From contig CANRHC010000003.1 in assembly GCA_947630305.1 (NCBI GenBank), positions 1 through 52,705 on the forward strand: a stretch of DNA of 52,705 bases. The letters run 5' to 3'. Of this stretch, positions 5,346 to 46,057 are shown in pieces; the first letter of the stretch is position 1; each line of letters starts with the position of its first letter. The DNA comes from an uncultured Bacilli bacterium (lineage in GTDB: Bacteria; Bacillota_I; Bacilli_A; RF39; UBA660). Under the pieces are notes generated by a model that saw only the letters and a list, made by a program, of their open reading frames with translations, ran no database searches and was not told the origin of the DNA. The position numbers and the translations under genes are program-made.

Positions 5346-6413
5346 TTATCCTTTAGCGGCCTTATATAAATCTTCTATTGATTGAGAAGTATCAGTAAGA
5401 ACAATACTACAAGGAGCTTTAGGATAAACAACAGCAAAACGAGATATAGCTGTAAGAACAAATCTTACAGGTCTTGGTTCATAATTAGCTATAACAGCAA
5501 TACCGCCTTCATTCTGAAGAACAATACCGTCCTGTTGTGCTAAAGTTAATTCTTCAGCTGTATAACCAACTGGTGTAGCCCCTAACTTAATATTAGGTAT
5601 AACTATAATCTTGTCAGTTGGTAAGAATGGATGCTGAACCTTATTAATATCAGTCCAAAAATAATCATTACCCTGATTATCCTGAACCTTAATAACTTCC
5701 CATTTAAGGTATTTAGCAAAACCTGAAATAACTTCTTCTTCAGTTAATTCACTTCTAGCTTTAGCTTGTTCTACACCTAATACTGTAGCTCTAAACTTTT
5801 CATTCAAGCTAATTTTAGCTATCTGTTCATCAGTAAGTAGAATTCTAGCTAAACGCTTACCATATGTTTTACTAATTAATCTGTTGTAGTATCTGCCTTT
5901 TAGAATCAGATCATCTTTAGTAAGATCAATATCTTCACACTGTTCTTCAGGAATTTTATAATCCCACGGTGTAGGATGAAAGTTATTTTCATTAATATCT
6001 ACTTTACCAGTGAAAGCCATAGCTCTAACTCTTTCACGTGCGATATAGTGAGAATTAATAAGTCTTTCTTCCATCTTAAAGATTTCTTTAATTCCTTCTT
6101 GAATTTCAGCGTCAGTTGAAGCGGTTAATAGCTTTCTAATTTGTCCATCAGTTAACTGATATTCTAATTTGAATTCAACCATATCCATAATGGAGTGATC
6201 TACATCAGGAAATTCAGCAAGCGGTGAAATTGTATTATCAGGAACCGCTAAAGCTGTAGGATTATAATCAACATCATAATCAGTTACTTTAATGAATTCA
6301 GCTGAAGTTCTTTGTTCAGGAAAAAACTTTTCAAAAAAATTAAATTGAGTTTCATAATTATCTGAAAAGTCCATTGTTTGAGTTGAAGCGATCTTTTCAA
6401 AAATATTACTCAT
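5346..6413 (-). CDS. Major capsid protein (lambda gpE-like family)
   Basis: 355 aa after scaffold and decoration genes; RE..RAMAFTGKVDINEN, LGATPVGYTAEE. Confidence 0.8.
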   Translation of the reverse strand: MSNIFEKIASTQTMDFSDNYETQFNFFEKFFPEQRTSAEFIKVTDYDVDYNPTALAVPDNTISPLAEFPDVDHSIMDMVEFKLEYQLTDGQIRKLLTASTDAEIQEGIKEIFKMEERLINSHYIARERVRAMAFTGKVDINENNFHPTPWDYKIPEEQCEDIDLTKDDLILKGRYYNRLISKTYGKRLARILLTDEQIAKISLNEKFRATVLGVEQAKARSELTEEEVISGFAKYLKWEVIKVQDNQGNDYFWTDINKVQHPFLPTDKIIVIPNIKLGATPVGYTAEELTLAQQDGIVLQNEGGIAVIANYEPRPVRFVLTAISRFAVVYPKAPCSIVLTDTSQSIEDLYKAAKG

Positions 6414-6427
6414 AATTATCCTCCATC

Positions 6428-7042
6428 TTATTCAGCTTTTTGTGCGCCTAAATTTGAAACAGCAGTATCTTTATCTGAAGCACCTGTACCACCCTTAGTA
6501 ATTGGTAAAGGTTGTGATTCAAGTAGTGCGTCTAAAGCTTCACTAGCTGAAGTAGCACCAGTACCACCTTTAGATATATCTAGTTTTCCAGTAGCTTTAC
6601 TTAAATCGAAATTAACCGAACTAGAAGAACTAGAACTTGCTGAAGTAGCTGGTGTTCTAGAACCAACACATAAAATATGAGGTAATTTAGCTTCAATAGC
6701 TGATTTAAAAGAATCATCATATTCAACTCCTTCAGGATAAGGTAATTTATCAGCATAAATAACGCCTCTTCTCATTAAAGAACCGCCCTGAACACCATCA
6801 GTAACATTAACAGCTTCAGTTAAAATACCAACAGGATCAGCTGAAAACTCTAAACTTTCACCTTTAGTAAGAGTAATAGCTTTACCGTCTTTATCAAGAA
6901 AAGTACCTTCATGAACCCATTTTTCATTATCGCTATCAGGCTGAATACCTTCATCAGAAACAGTAATAGGTTCAGGAGAATCACAGCGTGAAATAAATAA
7001 TTTAGGGCCTTGTAAATAACCCTGGTGCTGTCTTAATCTCAT
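6428..7042 (-). CDS. Putative capsid decoration protein with C-terminal GGTGA-repeat extension
   Basis: Position between scaffold and capsid; GILTEAVNVTDG...GVIYADKLP; Ser linker then two KGGTGA motifs. Confidence 0.6.
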   Translation of the reverse strand: MRLRQHQGYLQGPKLFISRCDSPEPITVSDEGIQPDSDNEKWVHEGTFLDKDGKAITLTKGESLEFSADPVGILTEAVNVTDGVQGGSLMRRGVIYADKLPYPEGVEYDDSFKSAIEAKLPHILCVGSRTPATSASSSSSSSVNFDLSKATGKLDISKGGTGATSASEALDALLESQPLPITKGGTGASDKDTAVSNLGAQKAE

Positions 7043-35373: not shown

Positions 35374-35403
35374 AAAGGAGCTGTCTAAACAGCTCCATTT
35401 TTT
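35374..35403. terminator. Bidirectional terminator between convergent genes
   Basis: GGAGCTGT/ACAGCTCC stem flanked by A and T tracts. Confidence 0.7.
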
Positions 35404-38195
35404 TAACTACATCCAGTAGTACTACCACAATCTAAACAGGTTTTACAAACACCAGTTTTAACCATGTTAGAACTACCACAACTAGGACAAGTTTCACCAT
35501 ATAACCTAGTTGGTTCTTCATCAATTTCTATAGCAGGTTTATTATTTAAAGGTTTTTCAGTTTGTGGCTTTACCTGTACATAATTATAGTTACCACATTC
35601 TATATCAATTACTTTACTAACTAAATCAGCTATTGAATCAGCAAATTTAATATTAGGGTGTCTACTTACAATTCCTGCTGGTTCAAATTTGTGTCCTCTT
35701 AACATTTTAGATATTTCTTCAGGATTAATACCAAATTGAAGCATATAAGAAATAGCTTTAGAAAGAGCTGATAAAAGTCCTTTAATGGTTGTACCTTCTT
35801 TATCAGTTGAGATAAAGAGTTCAGCTAATTCTCCATTATCATAATAACCAACAGTTATATATAAATTCAGGTTTTCTATTGTTACAGCATGAGTTCTACT
35901 ATTTCTAATTGGGCTAGGTTTAATTCTAGTAGGTAAGGTTCTTTCTTCTTTTTCTTCTTCAAGTTCTTCAGATTCTTTAGATTCTTTAGATTCTTCAATT
36001 TTTGTATTTAATGGTTGAGAAGCCTTACAACCATCCCTGTAAACTGTAATAGCTTTAACACCTGAATTATAGGCTAGATCATTAATGTTCATTATATCTT
36101 GAACAGTAGCTGAATTTGGTAAGTTTATAGTTTTACTAACAGCCCCTGATATTAATGGAGTAACAGCCGCTACCATCTTAACATGAGCTTCAGGACTTAT
36201 TTCATTAGCTGTTTGAAGTACTTTCTGAAGATTTTCACCAATATTAGGACAACCTTGATAAGTTCCATGTTTTTCAAAATAATCGTTTATTTGATCTTTA
36301 CAAGCATGATAAACACCGTTAGAAACAGAAATAAGATATTCTTCAGCTAAAGGATTAGCTATTACCATTGTAGAACCATCAGAACAATTTTTATAAATTC
36401 TATGTGAAAAGAATGGTTCTATTGAAGTAGCCCCACAATCCATAGCAAAAGAAATAGTTCCTGTTGGTGCTATACAACTTACTTGAGCATTCCTGAAACC
36501 GTTCTTTTTACCACTATTAAAAGCTTTACGCCAAATTTCTTGAAGTGCTTCAGCTAGATTAGCTGGTACTAAATCTAAATTAACTTTTTCAGGTTCTATA
36601 TTTAAAAAACCATTATTAACATAATCATCTGTATAAGCACCAGCCACAATACAATGATTAAATATTACATTTAACATTGAAGAACTGTTTTCTTTATATT
36701 TTTCAAAAGTTCCTATTTCTTTAGCCATTAAAGAAGAAACATAATAAGAGTAACCAGTCATAATACCAGTTAAAGTAGCTGCTAAAGCTCTAGCTTCATC
36801 ACTATCATAAGCTAAACCTTGAGCTAAGAATAAAGAAGCATAATTAGTTAAACCTAATCCTGTTGGTCTATATAAGTATGATCTTTCAGCTACAGCTTTA
36901 GTAGGATATTGACCCCAAAAGATTGAAGCTTCAAGAACCAGCTGAATTAAACCTATTATATGAAGAAAAGCTTCAATATCAAAAGAACCATCTTCATTAA
37001 GAAATTTTAAAAGGTTAATACTAGCTAAATTACAAGCGGTATTATCAAGAAAAACAAACTCTGAACAAGGATTAGAAGCTCTTATTACATCTTCATTCAA
37101 ACAGGTATTCCAGGCGTTTATAGTATCTGAAAATTGCAAGCCAGGATCCGCACAATTCCAAGCGGCTTTATTGATCTTTTCCCATAAATCATAAGCTTTT
37201 ACAGTTTTATTTACTTTAGAATCAGTTATACCGTATAAAACATAATCAGCTTCAGGATCATTCTTCTTAGTCATAAAATTTCTATCAACTCTAACTGAAT
37301 TGTTTGAATTTTGACCTGAAACTGTTTTATAGGCTTCTCCGTTCATGCTGGTATCATAACCAGCTTTACCTAAAGCTCTAACTTTATCTTCTTCTTTAGC
37401 TTTCCAATCAATAAAAGCTTCTATTTCAGGATGATTACTATCTAGAATAACCATTTTAGCGGCCCTTCTAGTAGTACCACCTGATTTAATAGCACCAGCG
37501 TTTCTATCTAACCCATATAGAAAAGACATAACACCGCTAGATTTACCGCCTGAACTTAAGCTTTCACCATCAGCCCTTATATTTGAAAAGTTTGTACCAA
37601 CGCCTGAACCACCTTTAAATAGTTTAGTTTCAATAGCGTAATGATCTGAAATAGATTCAGTTCCTAATAATTGATCTTTAATAGGAATGATAAAACAGGC
37701 TGAACTTTGACTTCTAGAATATCTATCTTTTGATCTTACAACCTTTTTTTCTTCAGGATCATAATAATAAGTATAATCATGATCCGCTTCTATACCATAT
37801 TTATTTAAACCAGTATTAAACCATTGAGGACTATTAGGAGCCCATATTTGGCTGATTATTGTATAAGCTAATTCATCATAAACAATAGAAGCTTCTTCAT
37901 CAGAATTTATTAAACCTTCTTCTTTTAGAGCTTCAACCCAAAACCAACACATTCTATCTACTACTTGTTTTAAAGAAGTTTCAGGAATAGCTCTAAAGAA
38001 ATATTTACTAGCTATAATATTACAAGCGTTTTCAGAATAAAAATCAGGAAATTCAGCCCCTTTAATCTGATATATTACTTCACCAGTTTTATAATTGTGA
38101 AGGGTAATATCTTTTTTAACCCAGTTGAATAGCTCAAAAACTGATTGATTGTCTTTAAGCTTTTTTGTATAGTGTCTTTTTATTATCTTTTTCAT
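35403..38195 (-). CDS. nrdJ: Class II (B12-dependent) ribonucleotide reductase
   Basis: PNSPQWFNTG, SACFI, GGTTRRAAKM, SNPCSE, APTGTIS, VYRDG, C-terminal CPSC/CLDCG..GCS. Confidence 0.93.
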   Translation of the reverse strand: MKKIIKRHYTKKLKDNQSVFELFNWVKKDITLHNYKTGEVIYQIKGAEFPDFYSENACNIIASKYFFRAIPETSLKQVVDRMCWFWVEALKEEGLINSDEEASIVYDELAYTIISQIWAPNSPQWFNTGLNKYGIEADHDYTYYYDPEEKKVVRSKDRYSRSQSSACFIIPIKDQLLGTESISDHYAIETKLFKGGSGVGTNFSNIRADGESLSSGGKSSGVMSFLYGLDRNAGAIKSGGTTRRAAKMVILDSNHPEIEAFIDWKAKEEDKVRALGKAGYDTSMNGEAYKTVSGQNSNNSVRVDRNFMTKKNDPEADYVLYGITDSKVNKTVKAYDLWEKINKAAWNCADPGLQFSDTINAWNTCLNEDVIRASNPCSEFVFLDNTACNLASINLLKFLNEDGSFDIEAFLHIIGLIQLVLEASIFWGQYPTKAVAERSYLYRPTGLGLTNYASLFLAQGLAYDSDEARALAATLTGIMTGYSYYVSSLMAKEIGTFEKYKENSSSMLNVIFNHCIVAGAYTDDYVNNGFLNIEPEKVNLDLVPANLAEALQEIWRKAFNSGKKNGFRNAQVSCIAPTGTISFAMDCGATSIEPFFSHRIYKNCSDGSTMVIANPLAEEYLISVSNGVYHACKDQINDYFEKHGTYQGCPNIGENLQKVLQTANEISPEAHVKMVAAVTPLISGAVSKTINLPNSATVQDIMNINDLAYNSGVKAITVYRDGCKASQPLNTKIEESKESKESEELEEEKEERTLPTRIKPSPIRNSRTHAVTIENLNLYITVGYYDNGELAELFISTDKEGTTIKGLLSALSKAISYMLQFGINPEEISKMLRGHKFEPAGIVSRHPNIKFADSIADLVSKVIDIECGNYNYVQVKPQTEKPLNNKPAIEIDEEPTRLYGETCPSCGSSNMVKTGVCKTCLDCGSTTGCS

Positions 38196-38197
38196 AA

Positions 38198-39550
38198 TTA
38201 ATTCATTACCAAATCCGCAGGATAAAGCTGAACGTGAACAAATAAATTAGAGTAATATTTGAGTGTACCTAAACCTACTTGTTGAGCACAATAAGCTATT
38301 TCATCTACCATAGCTCTAGACATACCAGGCGTATAAAGATCACAAGCATCCCCACTTAAATGAAGGCTATCAGGAACACCGCCATCTCTAGCATTTTGTA
38401 TAGGACATCTAAAGCCTGAAGTAATAACAAGTGGCATATCATGGCCCGCTCTTTGACTAAGTAAGTTTCTTAATTGTTGAACCTTAACTTTCAATTCAGA
38501 TTTAACATCTCCACCGCATCCACATTCACATTTAAATTCATCTTCAGTAAAGTTAACTAAAGTAGTTTCTGAAGAAGGCTGAACTTCAGTATTGAATAAT
38601 TTTGAATAAGTTTGTTCACCAACTATACCATCAACTTCTAAACCGTTTTTAGATTGAAAGTCCATAACGCTACCCATAGTACCAGCACCAGCCACACCAT
38701 CAATATCACAAGGAGAACCGACTTCACATAATCTTGTTTGATAAGCTCTTAATTGCTGTTCAGCATATGCTTGAGTAACAGGACCCCAAATACCATCCAC
38801 AGTAATGTTATAAGCTCTTTGAGCGTTAATTAAACATTCTTTAGTTTCAGGACCCCAAATACCATCTATTTCAGGCGCACCATAATTACAAATAGTTAAA
38901 AAATATTGAATATTATCAACTTCCCAATTAAAACCGCTGTTAGTAACTGTATTTTCAGGTTTAGGTGTTCCTGGTACTTGAGCTTCAACAGGAGTTGAAG
39001 AAGTTTCACCAATAGCTGTATAACTTTCACCAGCTACATCAAGAAGTCCATAAGCTATAGCATGCCCAAATAGTTTAGTATTATTTCTGATTAAATCATT
39101 ATCAGCTTTAATAGAACCTATTTCCATAATTAAAGAAGGCATATCAGTAGCTCTAACTTCATAATCATCCCTACATAAATTACCCCTATCATTTAAACCT
39201 GGTATTCTTAATTTCATAGAAGCTCTTACAGCTTCAGCCATAGCTAAACCAGCTTCACTAATATAAATAGGGTAAATTCCTGAAGGTGCTTGATCCCAAT
39301 CTAAATGAATAGAAATATAATGAGAACAGCCATTATTATTAGCTGTATCAACACATTTAACTATATTCATATTATTATCAGGATAATCAGTTAAATAGCT
39401 TTTTCCATTAGCATTAAACACTTCTAGAATACCAGCTACAACTTCTTTAGCTAAAGCGGCTTCAGTATAACCATTCCATGTACAACCAGTATCCCAAGAA
39501 CCATCTTGTGAAACACCATGCCCAATAGCTATATAAGGTTTAAAACTCAT
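38198..39550 (-). CDS. Endolysin: amidase_3 + peptidoglycan-binding repeats + M15 peptidase
   Basis: GHG...E, SIH, MEIG; DGIWGP/DGIVG repeats; CECGC, TSGFRC..N...GG...SLHL.G.A.D, FVHV. Confidence 0.9.
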   Translation of the reverse strand: MSFKPYIAIGHGVSQDGSWDTGCTWNGYTEAALAKEVVAGILEVFNANGKSYLTDYPDNNMNIVKCVDTANNNGCSHYISIHLDWDQAPSGIYPIYISEAGLAMAEAVRASMKLRIPGLNDRGNLCRDDYEVRATDMPSLIMEIGSIKADNDLIRNNTKLFGHAIAYGLLDVAGESYTAIGETSSTPVEAQVPGTPKPENTVTNSGFNWEVDNIQYFLTICNYGAPEIDGIWGPETKECLINAQRAYNITVDGIWGPVTQAYAEQQLRAYQTRLCEVGSPCDIDGVAGAGTMGSVMDFQSKNGLEVDGIVGEQTYSKLFNTEVQPSSETTLVNFTEDEFKCECGCGGDVKSELKVKVQQLRNLLSQRAGHDMPLVITSGFRCPIQNARDGGVPDSLHLSGDACDLYTPGMSRAMVDEIAYCAQQVGLGTLKYYSNLFVHVQLYPADLVMN

Positions 39551-39568
39551 TATTATCTCCCCAAATAA

Positions 39569-39610
39569 TAAAAAAGTAGGGAACGTTCTAGAACCGTTTA
39601 TTCCCTACTT
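39569..39610 (-). terminator. Terminator-like hairpin directly upstream of endolysin
   Basis: AAGTAGGGAA/TTCCCTACTT 10-bp stem followed by a T tract on the minus strand. Confidence 0.6.
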
Positions 39611-39706
39611 GAACTCAAGCCTGGTAAACTTAAGGTTTTATAAGCAACCGTTCGCTTGAGGTTTATACAGATAAAATTGTTTAATCTTTAACTTGTTATA
39701 GGATCT

Positions 39707-40009
39707 TTAATTTGAATCGGAGCTATTTACTAAATTGTTAACTTCTTGTTGCGTTATAGTACCAGCTTTTAAACCATTTAATACTGGTTGAGTAATTTGA
39801 GCGTCTTGAGTCCAATTGTTGTTTCTCCACCAGCCCCAAATTTCACCAATTATAGTAGCTATACCACTTACAACAAGTGTTATTGTTTCGTCCCCTATTT
39901 CTAAATTTGGTAAACCTCTTAAGGTAAGAAAAGCATTAATACATCCTACTAAAGTAACTAGTAAAGGTGCTATAGCGTTTATTTTTGCTATTATTTCCTG
40001 TTTATTCAT
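39707..40009 (-). CDS. Holin (SPP1-family-like)
   Basis: Two TM segments, WGWWRNNNWT motif. Confidence 0.85.
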   Translation of the reverse strand: MNKQEIIAKINAIAPLLVTLVGCINAFLTLRGLPNLEIGDETITLVVSGIATIIGEIWGWWRNNNWTQDAQITQPVLNGLKAGTITQQEVNNLVNSSDSN

Positions 40010-40313
40010 CTTTATTACCCCCATTATTAATTGTTATATTTTTATAATTACTTAGTTTAATTAAAGCTTCTTGGTGTTGGTCTAATCTCTTTTCATGATC
40101 GTTTAAAGTTTCTTTAACTTCTTTTTCCATTTTTTCTATATACTTGTTTAAGTTATCTATTGCTAAAGTACATTTAACTAGATTTTCATTAAACTGGTAA
40201 TAGATATTATTTTGTTTTTCTAAATGTTCGCTAAAGTATTTAAACAAAACAAATATAGCTGTTAAACCTACAACTATGCCACCAATCAGCTCAAATTGAC
40301 TTAAAGAATCCAT
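40002..40313 (-). CDS. Holin-like/BhlA-type membrane protein
   Basis: N-terminal TM plus coiled coil (HEKRL); lies upstream of the holin. Confidence 0.6.
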   Translation of the reverse strand: MDSLSQFELIGGIVVGLTAIFVLFKYFSEHLEKQNNIYYQFNENLVKCTLAIDNLNKYIEKMEKEVKETLNDHEKRLDQHQEALIKLSNYKNITINNGGNKDE

Positions 40314-40747: not shown

Positions 40748-41001
40748 TACATTTCCCCTATCTGCAATTCATATAAATCTACAAGCCCTAGCATTAGAGC
40801 GTCATTAGTTTCTTTCTGAATAAGAGCTTGTTCAGCTAGAAATAAAGATACAGGTATCCAGCGTTCTTGATATTTCCAACCGCCTTCTTCTCTTTCTTCA
40901 AAATCTTTACGTTCTATTACAAATCCATTTTCTAAAGGTTCAATAGAATTTGGCTTATGGTCTAAACAAAATTGTTCCTGCCATTGTGTTCTATCACCCA
41001 T
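40747..41001 (-). CDS. Tail-fibre-associated small protein
   Basis: GGAGG RBS; C-terminal LMLGLVDLYE typical of genes preceding CD1375-like genes. Confidence 0.6.
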   Translation of the reverse strand: MGDRTQWQEQFCLDHKPNSIEPLENGFVIERKDFEEREEGGWKYQERWIPVSLFLAEQALIQKETNDALMLGLVDLYELQIGEM

Positions 41002-41033
41002 ATTTCCTCCATAAAAAAAAGACATGAATTTAA

Positions 41034-42182
41034 TCACGTCTTATTAATTTCTTCACTAATAAAAGTATTTAAAACATCATCTAGTTGTTGCTGTTTCTTT
41101 AAATGTGCTTTATATCTATCACTTGAAGAAATTATTTGTCTTAGCCTTTTTCTGTTTACTAAAGGTTTAATATATTTTAAAAAGTAATTATAGGTATCGC
41201 TCTTTCTTAGAAATTCTAAATAACACATCATTGATCTAGCGTCATAACCTGTTATCTTTTTACCAGCTTTAAGTTTTTTATCTAAATGAAGTGCTTTTCT
41301 TCTAGCACGTCTTAAAATAGATTTTCTTAAAGTGGTTTTATTTCTGTAAAATCTGAAGCCTAAAAAATCTATATCTCTACCGTTCTTATCATTCTTATCA
41401 ACAAATCTAAATATCTGCCAGTTTTCCTTAAGCCTTAATTTAAGTTTGTTATTTAAGTATTCTTCTATTCTATCTTTAATTTTATGTAGTTTTCTTTTAT
41501 TAGGACAAAGAATAACTATATCATCCATATATCTAATATAATGATCTACTTTTAATTCTTGTCTAACAAAATTATCAAATTCCTGCATAAAATAATTAGA
41601 AAACCATTGAGAACAGTAAACACCTTTAGGGAGTCCTGGTTGATAAGTATCAAGTAATTGTTGTATCAAACTTAAATATTTTTGATCGTTAATAATATGC
41701 TGAAGTTTAAACATTAATAAAGAATGATCTATAGAATCATAGAACTTCTTTATATCAGCTTTAAAAACATAAAATCTTTTATTACCATAAGATTTTATCC
41801 ATTTTTCTAAAGCTTTTTTACCTGTTATACAACCTCTACCAGGAATAGAGCCACAAACAAAATCATCAATAGATTTAAGTACAATCGGTTTAAATTCAAT
41901 CATAATCATGTGATGAACTATTTGATCGTAAATAAATTTAGGTTTAGTTATTGTTCTAACCTTTTTATCTGAACCTTCATTAATCACACTAATAGAATAA
42001 GGTTTAAACTGATATTCACCAGTAAGTAAAAGATTTCTAAGTTTCTTCTTATGATAATCCCAATTCTGATAAATCCGTTTAACGTAGGATCTATTCTTTT
42101 TACCTTTACTAGCGCCTTCTAAAGCTAGATCCATTACCTCATCAGTTAACATATCTTCAAACAGATTGTTATATGATTTCAT
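41034..42182 (-). CDS. DGR reverse transcriptase
   Basis: KADIKKFYDSI, GLPKGVYCSQ (DGR-type GxxxSQ), YIRYMDD, IDFLG; 382 aa with no maturase or endonuclease extension. Confidence 0.95.
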   Translation of the reverse strand: MKSYNNLFEDMLTDEVMDLALEGASKGKKNRSYVKRIYQNWDYHKKKLRNLLLTGEYQFKPYSISVINEGSDKKVRTITKPKFIYDQIVHHMIMIEFKPIVLKSIDDFVCGSIPGRGCITGKKALEKWIKSYGNKRFYVFKADIKKFYDSIDHSLLMFKLQHIINDQKYLSLIQQLLDTYQPGLPKGVYCSQWFSNYFMQEFDNFVRQELKVDHYIRYMDDIVILCPNKRKLHKIKDRIEEYLNNKLKLRLKENWQIFRFVDKNDKNGRDIDFLGFRFYRNKTTLRKSILRRARRKALHLDKKLKAGKKITGYDARSMMCYLEFLRKSDTYNYFLKYIKPLVNRKRLRQIISSSDRYKAHLKKQQQLDDVLNTFISEEINKT

Positions 42183-42442
42183 TTATTTCTTATCGTCTGT
42201 AGGGCGTTCCGAAAAAGTATCGTACTAGCCCTACCCTACAGCGACATTATTTTTAGCAAGGGCTAGGGATTATAATTCACATTAACAATTTAAAGACGTA
42301 TCTAAGTCTGTAGGAATTGACGATAATTAAGACGGGCACAGCACGAGCCACGGAAATTGTTGTTGTTGTTGCCGTTGTTGTTGTTGTTGAACCACGAGGA
42401 CGCAAGCCCTCACAAGAGCGTGAAATATAACCCGAAAAACTA
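42183..42442 (-). ncRNA. Predicted structured DGR template RNA
   Basis: TATAAT at 42454-42449; inverted repeats bracket TR; interleaved stems in the spacer. Ends approximate. Confidence 0.55.
42329..42411 (-). repeat. DGR template repeat (TR), 83 nt
   Basis: GAGGGCTTGCGTCCTCGTGGTTC-(AAC)5-GGC-(AAC)4-AAT-TTCCGTGGCTCGTGCTGTGCCCGTCTT. Confidence 0.95.
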
Positions 42443-42480
42443 ATATCTATTATATAAAATTCAAATTAACAGTTCTAGAA

Positions 42481-42524
42481 TCGGGGGATAAATCCCCCGA
42501 ACCCCCAATCGGTGCTTACGCACC
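42481..42524. promoter_or_regulatory. Hairpins downstream of VR (target-recognition cruciform candidates)
   Basis: TCGGGGGA-TAAA-TCCCCCGA at 42481-42500 and GGTGC-TTAC-GCACC at 42511-42524. Confidence 0.7.
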
Positions 42525-44759
42525 TGTAGGTGGCTCAAAAGAAAGACGGGCACAGCACGAGCCACGGAAATCGCCGCCGTAGTAGTAGTAGAACCACGAG
42601 GACGCAAGCCCTCTTAAACCGCCCCTTCTAACACCTATATGTGTGCCTGATACATATTTCGAAAATTCAATTGGATCACATTCATAAGTACTAGAAGTAG
42701 CACCTATTTCTGAAGGTACTCTACCATAATTATTATCTAAAACTGATGTTTTTATATTTCCTGTTTTAGTAACAAAAGTAGATTGATTAGTATAACCACT
42801 AGTAGTACCTTGTCCATTAGCCGCAATTGTAGCATATGGTCTTTGAGTTTTTACATATAAAGTACCAGTAGCTGTATCATCATTTTTTGAAGTAACTAAA
42901 GTTCCGTCCATCATTTCAGCAAGCGGTTTAGAACGGTCTGAAAAATAATCTTCAATGTGCATAAATTTTACACATCCTGAAGTAGTATCTACAGCTATAG
43001 GTCCTGATTCAGCAAATAATCCTGTTTTTAGACTAGGTAAAGTACCTTCCGAGCCATAATTTACTTCACCGGCTCCTTGTCTACCTTTTCCTAAAACAGA
43101 ACAGTTTTCAGTTTTAAATATGATATTAAAAATCATATCTAACACCTGATATAAAGCCCATGTTGCTAAACCATAGTTTTCACCATTTTTAAGAGCTGTA
43201 TTTCTAATATCGAATGAACTTGATCTTGTTGAAGCAGGGAACATTACATTTTGTCCTGAAATACTTCTTAATTTAGTACCATCATTTGAACCTAAGAACA
43301 TAGCGATAAACTGGTTTTCTAATTCAGCACCTTCAGAATTGGTAAAGCCTAAAGGAACATAGCCATCTTTAGGACTATCTGTAATACTCATATATTCATA
43401 AGTACTATCACTCCAAAATCTAGTGTACATTTTTTCAACGCATACCATAGCGTTACCATCATAAGAAGTTTGGCCTATATCAGAATAATCACCATCAAGT
43501 TTTTTAGCATAGTTATAAGGATCTAGTAAATAATCAATAGTACCATTAGTTTTAAGCATAACAGGATAGATTTTTTCAAAGAAGAAAGTATCTAACCAAT
43601 CTCCGTAATTAACAGTTGAGCCTTCAACGCTTCCTGGTGTCATTCCTGTAGCGTCATCCTGATATTCAACACGTTCTGTAGGATCTTCAGTATTCTTGTT
43701 AATTCTAATGGTATAAACACCACCTATACTAAATCTAGCGTTATAACTCTTAGCTTCAGAAACATTTACTTTAACTGTTTTTTCAGGAAAATCATCACAG
43801 GTTAAAGTCCATTCACCCAGTTCACTTACTAAGAAAGTACAAGTTCTATTAGTAACAGTTTGTTCTAAAGTAGTATTATCTAATGTACATTTAAGAACTT
43901 TTCCATCTATTTTAGAATCAGTCTTAACTATAATCATAGGAATACCGCTTGAGCTTTCATCTATCTTAATTTCAGTAGAATAAGAAGTAGCTGAATCAAC
44001 ACTAACTGTTTGACTAATATAAGAATTGCCTTCTACCCCAATTGTCCATGTACCAGTTTTATGTACATTAAACTTAACATTAGTAGATAAAGCTTTTTCT
44101 TTATAAGTAGTACCTTCTTGTTTACAGGTTATAGTTGAACCTACTAAAGCACTAGGTAAACTTACTCTAATAGTTGCTGTAAATTCATAGAATTCAGCAA
44201 GCGTAATTAATGGATTTTCTACTTCAATAGTTAAAACTAAAGCGTCTAAATTGTTTTTAACAGTATAAGAACCGCCATCAGGAATAACTATATCTGCTAT
44301 ACCATTTTCTACAACAGCTGAATATTCTTGTGAATCAGCCTTATTAGTAGCTGTAAATGTTTTTCCTTCATATTTTGAATCACAAGTAACTCTAATTACA
44401 AGTGAAGCTGAACCAGTTCCATTTTCTTCTATCTCAGAAACTTGTTCTTTTAAATTTGAAATATCACTTTTATTAGTTTCAATATTTTGTGTGTTTGTAC
44501 TTACACTACTTTTTAAATTTGTTATATCAGTTGTGTTAGTACCTACACTAGATTCTAAATTTGTAACGTTACTCTCAATTGCTGATATTGAATCCTTAAT
44601 CCCCTTTACGGTGGTACTATCACCACCGTAAAGAGTTGTAGCGTCTTTTTGTGTTAAGAATTCTGATTGCAAAAGAGTATGTATTTCAGGAATATCTTCT
44701 TTTGTTAAAAAAGGATTTTCTTTTGATGATTCCCAATCATAAATTTTAGCCATATTCAC
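42516..44759 (-). CDS. DGR target: tail fibre/receptor-binding protein
   Basis: Last gene of the fibre block; coiled coil, about three beta-rich repeats, C-terminal RRGG...ARL (CLec-like) segment containing VR; likely ATG at 44753. Confidence 0.85.
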   Translation of the reverse strand: MNMAKIYDWESSKENPFLTKEDIPEIHTLLQSEFLTQKDATTLYGGDSTTVKGIKDSISAIESNVTNLESSVGTNTTDITNLKSSVSTNTQNIETNKSDISNLKEQVSEIEENGTGSASLVIRVTCDSKYEGKTFTATNKADSQEYSAVVENGIADIVIPDGGSYTVKNNLDALVLTIEVENPLITLAEFYEFTATIRVSLPSALVGSTITCKQEGTTYKEKALSTNVKFNVHKTGTWTIGVEGNSYISQTVSVDSATSYSTEIKIDESSSGIPMIIVKTDSKIDGKVLKCTLDNTTLEQTVTNRTCTFLVSELGEWTLTCDDFPEKTVKVNVSEAKSYNARFSIGGVYTIRINKNTEDPTERVEYQDDATGMTPGSVEGSTVNYGDWLDTFFFEKIYPVMLKTNGTIDYLLDPYNYAKKLDGDYSDIGQTSYDGNAMVCVEKMYTRFWSDSTYEYMSITDSPKDGYVPLGFTNSEGAELENQFIAMFLGSNDGTKLRSISGQNVMFPASTRSSSFDIRNTALKNGENYGLATWALYQVLDMIFNIIFKTENCSVLGKGRQGAGEVNYGSEGTLPSLKTGLFAESGPIAVDTTSGCVKFMHIEDYFSDRSKPLAEMMDGTLVTSKNDDTATGTLYVKTQRPYATIAANGQGTTSGYTNQSTFVTKTGNIKTSVLDNNYGRVPSEIGATSSTYECDPIEFSKYVSGTHIGVRRGGLRGLASSWFYYYYGGDFRGSCCARLSFEPPTGA
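42543..42613 (-). repeat. DGR variable repeat (VR), 71 nt
   Basis: Same two arms as TR around TAC TAC TAC TAC GGC GGC GAT. Confidence 0.95.
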
Positions 44760-45433: not shown

Positions 45434-46057
45434 TTAACTGCTAAGTCCTTGTTTAAACGCATTTATAACTTCTTCAGTAGTAGCTACTTCATAATCAGGA
45501 TCATCATCACCACCGCCACTACCGCTCCAAGAAATACCCATAGCTTCTTGAATATCTTCTTCATCACATTCATATAGCGTTCTTTTATTGAATTCATCAT
45601 TGATAGTATCAAGAACAAATTCAGTTGTAGCAACTGTTATATTAGGATTAATTTGAACCCTAATAATATCAGCATGATCTACAGCTATATGAAAGTTGAT
45701 TAGCATATCATTATAATGATCGCTTTCACCTGTTAAAGCTGTTTTTGGTGTTTCTTCAATCGTTGCTATAGCTACTAAATCATCTTCTTCATTTAGAATT
45801 CCTATTTCTCGAACCATGAAGCCACCAACATCAGCTGGTATATGAGCTTGAAAAATTCCTTGTGTTTCATTAGTAGCGGTGTAATTTTCAATAGCTCCTC
45901 GCCATCTTTCATTCCTTAATTGTTCCTGATTAGCTGTAGGAACATATTCTGAACCACCACCATCACCAACTGCAATTTGCGTCCAATTACATTGTTGGTG
46001 TAAAAAAGAAGCTGTAGCTATATCACTTAGCCCAGCTTGAGTAATTAATGATCCCAT
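45434..46057 (-). CDS. Tail collar fibre protein (DUF3751-like)
   Basis: ITQAG, AVGDGGG, IPADVGGFMVREIG, ATTEFV. Confidence 0.85.
   Translation of the reverse strand: MGSLITQAGLSDIATASFLHQQCNWTQIAVGDGGGSEYVPTANQEQLRNERWRGAIENYTATNETQGIFQAHIPADVGGFMVREIGILNEEDDLVAIATIEETPKTALTGESDHYNDMLINFHIAVDHADIIRVQINPNITVATTEFVLDTINDEFNKRTLYECDEEDIQEAMGISWSGSGGGDDDPDYEVATTEEVINAFKQGLSS

Follow-up and report, generated by a model that had tools for sequence, protein, structure and literature searches.

A compact phage diversity-generating retroelement with a variable repeat four codons shorter than its template repeat

Diversity-generating retroelements (DGRs) whose template repeat (TR) and variable repeat (VR) differ in length have been described previously. 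In the curated survey of Wu, Gingery, Zimmerly et al. (NAR 2018; PMC5758913), the two lengths differ in 25 of 372 DGRs, in 14 cases by a multiple of 3. In that survey, 74% of the TR/VR indels adjoin AAC, and template slippage of the reverse transcriptase (RT) on AAC repeats is the likely cause. Tandem AAC repeats are described there as common in TRs, the mutagenized part of TRs is put at ~30-100 bp, and the in-frame indels are placed almost only in Lineage 4-related DGRs, the least phage-associated. The slippage model is restated in a later reconstitution study (PMC12875486). RT slippage at AAC repeats as a cause of such differences is a hypothesis that has been in print since 2018 and is not new; a search of the literature tying DGRs to complementarity-determining region 3 (CDR3) or to length variation yielded nothing beyond these two sources. 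Here we describe a DGR on the minus strand of a 52,705-nucleotide stretch assigned to an uncultured Bacilli bacterium (assembly GCA_947630305.1, contig CANRHC010000003.1, positions 1 to 52,705; hereafter the window), in which VR is 4 codons shorter than TR.

The cassette reads, 5' to 3', target open reading frame (ORF), VR, GC-rich hairpin, TR, structured RNA and RT. Its features are as follows:

42516 to 44759, minus strand: target gene, a tail protein of 747 aa from a GTG start (the database call has 745 aa, from the ATG at 44753)
42543 to 42613, minus strand: VR, 71 nt, delimited by self-comparison and by alignment with TR
42570 to 42590, minus strand: VR tract of 7 codons, YYYYGGD, target residues 724-730
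42481 to 42500, minus strand: GC-rich inverted repeat TCGGGGGA-TTTA-TCCCCCGA, located by DNA folding
42329 to 42411, minus strand: TR, 83 nt, composed of a 23-nt arm, (AAC)5 GGC (AAC)4 AAT and a 27-nt arm
42356 to 42388, minus strand: TR adenine tract of 11 codons (33 nt), with 20 of the 21 TR adenines
42186 to 42265, minus strand: structured RNA, Rfam RT-18 (match to RF03021), presumed spacer part of the DGR RNA
41034 to 42182, minus strand: DGR reverse transcriptase, 382 aa, recognized by Pfam, PHROG and YMDD

TR and VR share a 5' arm (GAGGGCTTGCGTCCTCGTGGTTC, 23 nt; 42389-42411 in TR and 42591-42613 in VR) and a 3' arm (TTCCGTGGCTCGTGCTGTGCCCGTCTT, 27 nt; 42329-42355 in TR and 42543-42569 in VR), which agree at all 50 of their nt. 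The window contains exactly two copies of each arm, and 100 shuffles gave no arm match. The 3' arm is free of adenine, and beyond it TR and VR diverge, as in a putative initiation of mutagenic homing segment (IMH/IMH*). Between the arms, the 11-codon tract of TR is matched in VR by (TAC)4 GGC GGC GAT (21 nt), and the target C-terminus reads ...GLASSWF-YYYYGGD-FRGSCCARLSFEPPTGA*, with 8 codons from the end of VR to the target stop. The 21 adenines of TR are distributed as 20 in the tract and one in the 5' arm. MAFFT and blastn agree on one in-frame gap of 12 nt, under which 7/7 substitutions fall at TR adenines; the probability of this by chance is 0.0068 when only the 21 aligned tract positions are counted and 1.3e-6 over all 71 aligned positions. 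An earlier model-made note on this DNA, the sequence-only reading, had claimed the identical arms with a single A between them, the two tract sequences with their 4-codon difference, the single in-frame gap with adenine-only substitutions and the concentration of adenines in a triplet repeat. Self-comparison, the sequence itself, the two aligners and a base count reproduce all of these exactly, with the qualification that the alignment is not unique. There are 330 in-frame ways of dropping 4 of the 11 TR codons, 105 of which give changes at A sites only; the minimum of 7 changes is reached by 21, and just one of these 21 has a single gap. Because of this ambiguity, the pair is compatible with more than one number and position of indel events.

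The remaining components support assignment to the DGRs. The RT matches Pfam RVT_1 (8.1e-18) and PHROG 1423 reverse transcriptase (9.5e-96), its reading frame is open, and the catalytic YMDD lies at residue 218. It also carries GVYCSQ, an instance of the GxxxSQ motif that is a hallmark of DGR RTs. Its best match among solved structures is 8ub7_A, a 328-aa 'Reverse transcriptase' (2.7e-23), which we take to belong to the Bordetella phage bRT complex. The NCBIfam models for group II intron, Drt and retron RTs all score under their cut-offs. The RNA between TR and RT matches RT-18 over the full model (1-84) with 63.3 bits, against a gathering score of 41.3. The hairpin after VR, with an 8-bp stem and a 4-nt loop, starts 42 nt past the point at which TR and VR cease to be identical, and it has no T-run; folded as DNA, 42440-42545 has an energy of -16.4 kcal/mol (z -4.04), and 0/200 shuffles were equally stable. 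A GC-rich inverted repeat follows the IMH in 34% of curated DGRs, as given in PMC5758913. A second small hairpin, GGTGC-GTAA-GCACC (42511-42524, minus strand), encloses the TAA stop of the target and precedes the larger one. The proposal that this is a DGR is upheld by the RT, the adenine-specific TR/VR pair, the RNA between TR and RT and the hairpin after VR, and from these sequence features we consider the cassette a genuine compact DGR, phage-encoded and apparently aimed at one loop.

The layout resembles that of the BPP-1 DGR (Mtd, bRT, Avd, TR, IMH, hairpin) in several respects. In both, the RT adjoins TR, adenine-to-N changes are found in a VR at the 3' end of a tail or receptor-binding gene, a GC-rich inverted repeat follows VR, and a structured RNA lies between TR and RT. 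This RNA is RT-10 in BPP-1, whereas the window has RT-18, and no Avd was found among the neighboring ORFs of the window. Furthermore, the 83-nt TR of the window has one adenine run, in contrast to the scattered AAC codons of BPP-1, and its TR and VR are unequal in length.

The target matches a PHROG tail protein family (PHROG 5302, 4.1e-40). An AlphaFold2 (AF2) model of its C-terminal 403 residues has a mean predicted local distance difference test score (pLDDT) of 83.7 and a predicted template modeling score (pTM) of 0.90. The C-terminal domain, from ~residue 345 of the target, matches the Thermus aquaticus variable protein TaqVP (PDB 5vf4) with a Foldseek value of 1e-6, and by VIA with Z 18.6 and a root-mean-square deviation of 3.9 A over 261 aligned residues. 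TaqVP is the sole strong structural match; the next by VIA are PvdO, PorK/PorN and EgtB at Z 5.9-8.3, which presumably have a related fold resembling that of formylglycine-generating enzyme (FGE). Thus, the domain models as a TaqVP-like DGR variable-protein fold of the C-type lectin (CLec) type. The two proteins share this fold across model residues 50-399, but are only 14% identical, and TaqVP is cellular, whereas the protein in the window belongs to a phage tail and has an additional N-terminal part. In this N-terminal part, 44490-44564 (minus strand) contains ~33-nt near-repeats (TNLESSVGTNT / TNLKSSVSTNT) in a coiled-coil-like stretch. The variable codons fall within model residues 379-389, one of three stretches with pLDDT below 50 and the least confident part of the model, where DSSP draws a short hairpin. 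In the model, the variable segment forms a single exposed loop, carried by a fixed scaffold, in agreement with the earlier proposal of a single loop, which had suggested modeling the C-terminus for this purpose.

More distant relatives of the target are widespread in gut phages. We found 127 in IMG/VR and kept 80 loci (L001-L080), many of which are near-identical lineages, so that the counts below are not rates. The central domain of the target is 28-33% identical to these proteins. Adenine-biased TR/VR pairs were detected by a self-comparison script in 65 of the 80 loci, and the RT follows TR in all 65. RTs with 31-44% identity to that of the window occur in 68 of the 83 relatives' loci; for the IMG/VR RTs the range is 34-44%, with the same gene order of target, VR, TR and RT. 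Of the other 15 IMG/VR loci, 4 have TR/VR-like repeats whose adenine bias is weaker, including one case in which a 3-nt gap lies beyond the mutagenized part; no such pair was found in the remaining 11, some of which have unrelated repeats. The RT-18 RNA is a further common element: it was matched at 11 of the 15 loci that were scanned in relatives (14 IMG/VR loci and 1 metagenome locus; for example L037 6508-6586, L038 6473-6565 and L074 6436-6518) and lies between TR and RT in 10/10 loci in which both could be located, the RT start of L047 not having been located. Among the RT motifs, RT-10 alone was linked with a DGR by Weinberg et al. (2017), who speculated on the others, and our search of the literature found nothing linking RT-18 with DGRs. 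In these gut-phage DGRs, RT-18 appears to be the spacer RNA. These DGRs differ from the window in that their TRs are mostly 110-121 nt long with scattered AAC/AAT codons, and their VR encodes ~39 residues of the usual CLec type in place of one loop. Shorter pairs occur in L062 and L063 (71 nt) and in L075 (76 nt). The sequence comparisons suggest that the window cassette is a compact derivative or cousin of this widespread group.

Many RTs of the IMG/VR loci match the query only in an N-terminal (1-178) or C-terminal (148/173-356) part, as in L032 (7165-7818) and L024 (6539-7072), and the RT of L002 has a long insertion, with 432 aligned columns for 356 residues. These partial or interrupted matches may reflect an insert or frameshift in the RT genes. 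In L062 and L063, ~6295-6555 holds a decayed DGR in which TR matches VR over 71 nt and is followed by an RT remnant (query residues 290-356 only); VR still differs from TR at 7 adenines.

Close relatives are few. Three word-indexed protein searches and a full HMMER scan of 1.84 billion representatives gave 209 proteins, only 5 of which have the SSWF-loop-FRGSC ending: P0001 and P0003, which are identical and represent the window, and P0004, P0005 and P0006. Their loops are:

P0001 (window): YYYYGGD, 7 residues
P0004: FNIYGLTY, 8 residues, 88% identity to the window
P0005: GSYIGGIYDANS, 12 residues, 59% identity to the window
P0006: YCHPHNYV, 8 residues, 58% identity to the window

All 35 of the 35 loop residues of these four clade members can be encoded by NNY (P = 0.002 against a background in which 16.2% of residues need some other codon), and such residues are what a run of AAC/AAT codons under adenine mutagenesis would be expected to give. 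The next relative, P0007, has E, M and Q in the segment equivalent to the loop. In a model of P0005 the scaffold is kept (pLDDT 80.5), with a longer low-confidence stretch at residues 382-401; loops between 7 and 12 residues long are accommodated on this scaffold. Two phages with RTs that are 86% identical have loops of 7 and 8 residues, and the 90% cluster of the window RT has 6 members on several contigs. The sequence-only reading had proposed a loop that varies in length as well as in sequence, with related phages as a point of comparison: the loops do differ in length (7, 8, 8 and 12), and for these differences the DGR is a possible source. P0004 is a 993-aa protein, its 88% identity covers the C-terminal part, and it also contains a PF12571 tail-collar domain, which in the window is a separate gene (45434-46057) two ORFs upstream of the target.

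No DNA of close relatives was found by megablast against phages or by target and RT searches of viral contigs, and the 3' arm, sought as a DNA pattern in viral contigs, likewise led to no close relative. The five closest targets, aligned to metagenome contigs, recovered 3 distant loci only (22-29% identity), and no close relative was present in the genome contigs; the C-terminal 70 residues, aligned to viral and genome contigs, gave the same outcome. Searching the target by tblastn against phages returned 11 records, all below 60% identity. No shorter protein fragments of the target C-terminus were found, the SSWF-loop-FRGSC clade gained no further member from searches with P0004 or from those against the 1.84 billion representatives, and small ORFs over TR are absent from the protein collection. 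The pattern (AAC)4 GGC (AAC)3 occurs in viral contigs at 4 loci, all of which were rejected as Asn/Gly-rich coding repeats without an RT. To judge from these searches, the compact form of the cassette is rare.

We considered whether the element has decayed. No Avd family match was found among the ORFs beside the cassette (Pfam, PHROG, NCBIfam); the 96-aa ORF after the RT is acidic (pI 4.45). An inactive DGR, in which TR and VR drift apart and the gap is a product of decay, would be compatible with this lack of Avd, with the cut TR and RT remnant of L062 and L063 and with the E, M and Q of P0007. However, avd is present in 74% of curated DGRs and absent from 26% according to PMC5758913, the RT frame of the window is open and includes YMDD, and its RT-18 RNA scores higher than that of all 11 matching relatives. 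In addition, the arms are 100% identical, 7/7 differences affect adenines, and the gap preserves the reading frame. We therefore regard decay as very improbable, and predict from the sequence that the DGR is intact and probably active.

An explanation of the length mismatch follows from the family mechanism. A transcript with the 83-nt TR and the RT-18-type RNA would be reverse-transcribed by the adjacent RT, with random copying at template adenines, and the cDNA would take the place of VR at the end of the tail-protein gene. With 20 of the 21 adenines in one AAC/AAT codon run, rewriting would be confined to one hairpin loop between W-F and F-R-G, and stop codons would never arise. On the AAC repeat, the RT, or the cDNA at integration, would have lost register, leaving VR 12 nt shorter, and loop length would change now and then together with sequence. 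We tentatively favor such RT-linked slippage as the source of the mismatch, with slightly less than even confidence, its dependence on the RT and its frequency being inferred. The mismatch itself, a multiple of 3 (12 nt) inside the AAC run, belongs to the known class of non-canonical DGR products with in-frame indels at AAC repeats. For DNA slippage in repeats with 4-5 units, losing 4 codons is a large step that takes several single-unit slips or one large one, whereas register could be lost repeatedly during synthesis of a single cDNA on an 11-codon repeat. In the reconstituted BPP-1 DGR, AAC was most often converted to codons for Tyr (14%), Ser (12%) and Asp (10%), as reported in PMC12875486, and these outcomes fit the Tyr/Gly/Asp loop of the window. 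The same study describes an 18-nt TR insertion that was copied into VR in E. coli; since faithful homing transfers TR length, the VR now seen is not a length-preserving copy of the TR now seen.

Several observations weigh against slippage during homing as the source, and some of them point instead to an RT-independent change in a real DGR, in which the (AAC)n of TR gained units, or the (TAC)n/(GGC)n of VR lost them, by replication slippage or recombination after the last retrohoming. A G occupies loop position 5 in P0001, P0004 and P0005 (3 of 4 clade members), which suggests a clade norm of four variable codons before a fixed GGC; the TR of the window has five, so the change would have been in TR rather than in the cDNA. 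VR consists of runs of identical codons, (TAC)4 and (GGC)2, which are themselves prone to slippage. Four Tyr in a row by independent mutagenesis at 14% each would have a probability of ~4e-4, unless there is strong selection for Tyr. Among the adenine-biased IMG/VR pairs, 64 of 65 are gap-free, and an indel inside the mutagenized part is found in 1/65: L067 has a canonical TR (6292-6409, 118 nt) and a VR (6034-6148) that is 3 nt short beside GCG AAC. Otherwise the TR and VR of the distant relatives match in length at each locus and differ between lineages, from 110 to 121 nt. Within the clade, the lengths of TR and VR may simply change together. Retrohoming passes the length of TR to VR (the 18-nt insertion above), and after an RT-independent change the next round of faithful homing would simply give VR the length of TR. 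Set against this, the 4-codon difference would demand several unit steps or one unusually large step in repeats of 4-5 units, and VR would never have been reset by homing while the arms remained identical at 50/50 nt. Moreover, indels at short AAC runs across many DGRs are hard to explain by DNA slippage alone. We judge an RT-independent origin possible and somewhat unlikely.

The sequence comes from a metagenome contig, and its word depth in rabbit-gut runs is ~4-5x; DGRs ~90% alike occur in the same samples, and the RT cluster spans several contigs. An assembly artifact, either a consensus that joins the TR and VR of different co-existing strains or a wrong repeat count, would be favored by these circumstances. 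In Logan contigs from 4 runs at this depth, error-free cover extends over 41000-42137 and 42992-44676; the VR bins have zero depth and 42352-42400 is skipped. Loose contig ends in those runs cluster at 42205 and 42238, inside the RT-18 element, and may mark a conserved core common to other DGRs. Nevertheless, a typical read is longer than the whole of TR (83 nt) or VR (71 nt), and pure repeats reach at most 15 nt, which is probably too short for assembly collapse. The arms show no mismatch, and the 3' end is anchored by the last codon (AAT/GAT). On balance an artifact appears improbable to us.

Returning to slippage during reverse transcription or integration, the window is like the in-frame DGRs of Wu et al. 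in that its length difference is a multiple of 3 located in or next to AAC repeats of TR. It differs in belonging to a phage tail gene, while theirs are nearly all Lineage 4-related, and this phage context argues against a Lineage 4-related placement of the window RT. It differs also in that its whole mutagenic part is the repeat, which at 33 nt is at the low end of their range of 30-100 bp. What is peculiar here is this complete overlap of repeat and mutagenic part, the size of the mismatch (4 of 11 codons) and the phage setting, which together make the locus a rather extreme case; a closer precedent may exist in Figure 4D or the supplementary alignments of that paper.

The variable region also invites analogy, and analogy only, with antibody CDR-H3. 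Both are one Tyr/Gly/Asp-rich loop on a fixed scaffold, with a length that differs between relatives, whereas mechanism and ancestry are not shared and a length change made by the element is hypothetical here. A stronger version of this idea is that the AAC microsatellite is an evolved design, that homing in the clade often changes loop length and sequence together, as in CDR3, and that standard DGR finders miss such compact gapped cassettes; taken as a whole, we consider it rather unlikely.

Judging by the surrounding genes and by the distant cultured relatives of the target, which are Butyrivibrio and Faecalibacterium phages, the cassette sits in the tail-to-lysis part of a phage. Its neighbors include a tail-collar fiber, a baseplate wedge, an SPP1-type holin and an endolysin (Pfam, PHROG). 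After the DGR, 35403-40024 (minus strand) encodes a ribonucleotide reductase large subunit (930 aa), the endolysin (450 aa) and the SPP1-type holin. No tRNA genes were found in the window, and neither a sigma-70-like promoter nor a T-run terminator was found in 42100-42700. The G+C content is ~0.21-0.43 per 100 nt near the cassette, and 0.45 and 0.56 in the 100-nt windows with TR and VR. Parts of the stretch are present in 11 runs, which are rabbit-gut or gut metagenomes from 3 studies.

The form of the cassette has consequences for its detection. Survey-type blastn settings (word size 8, gap opening 6, gap extension 2) recover nothing of the pair but two perfect repeats, 29 and 23 nt long, and myDGR needs a 60-bp ungapped seed. 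Because such settings split the pair and the seed must be ungapped, compact gapped cassettes are probably under-counted in DGR surveys.

With a TR of 83 nt, a single loop and a repeat that contains 20 of the 21 adenines, the cassette would offer a clean natural test bed for the slippage model. If RT slippage on AAC runs regularly alters loop length, estimates of DGR diversity that consider adenine substitutions only would be too low, and length would be a second axis of receptor-binding variation in phages.

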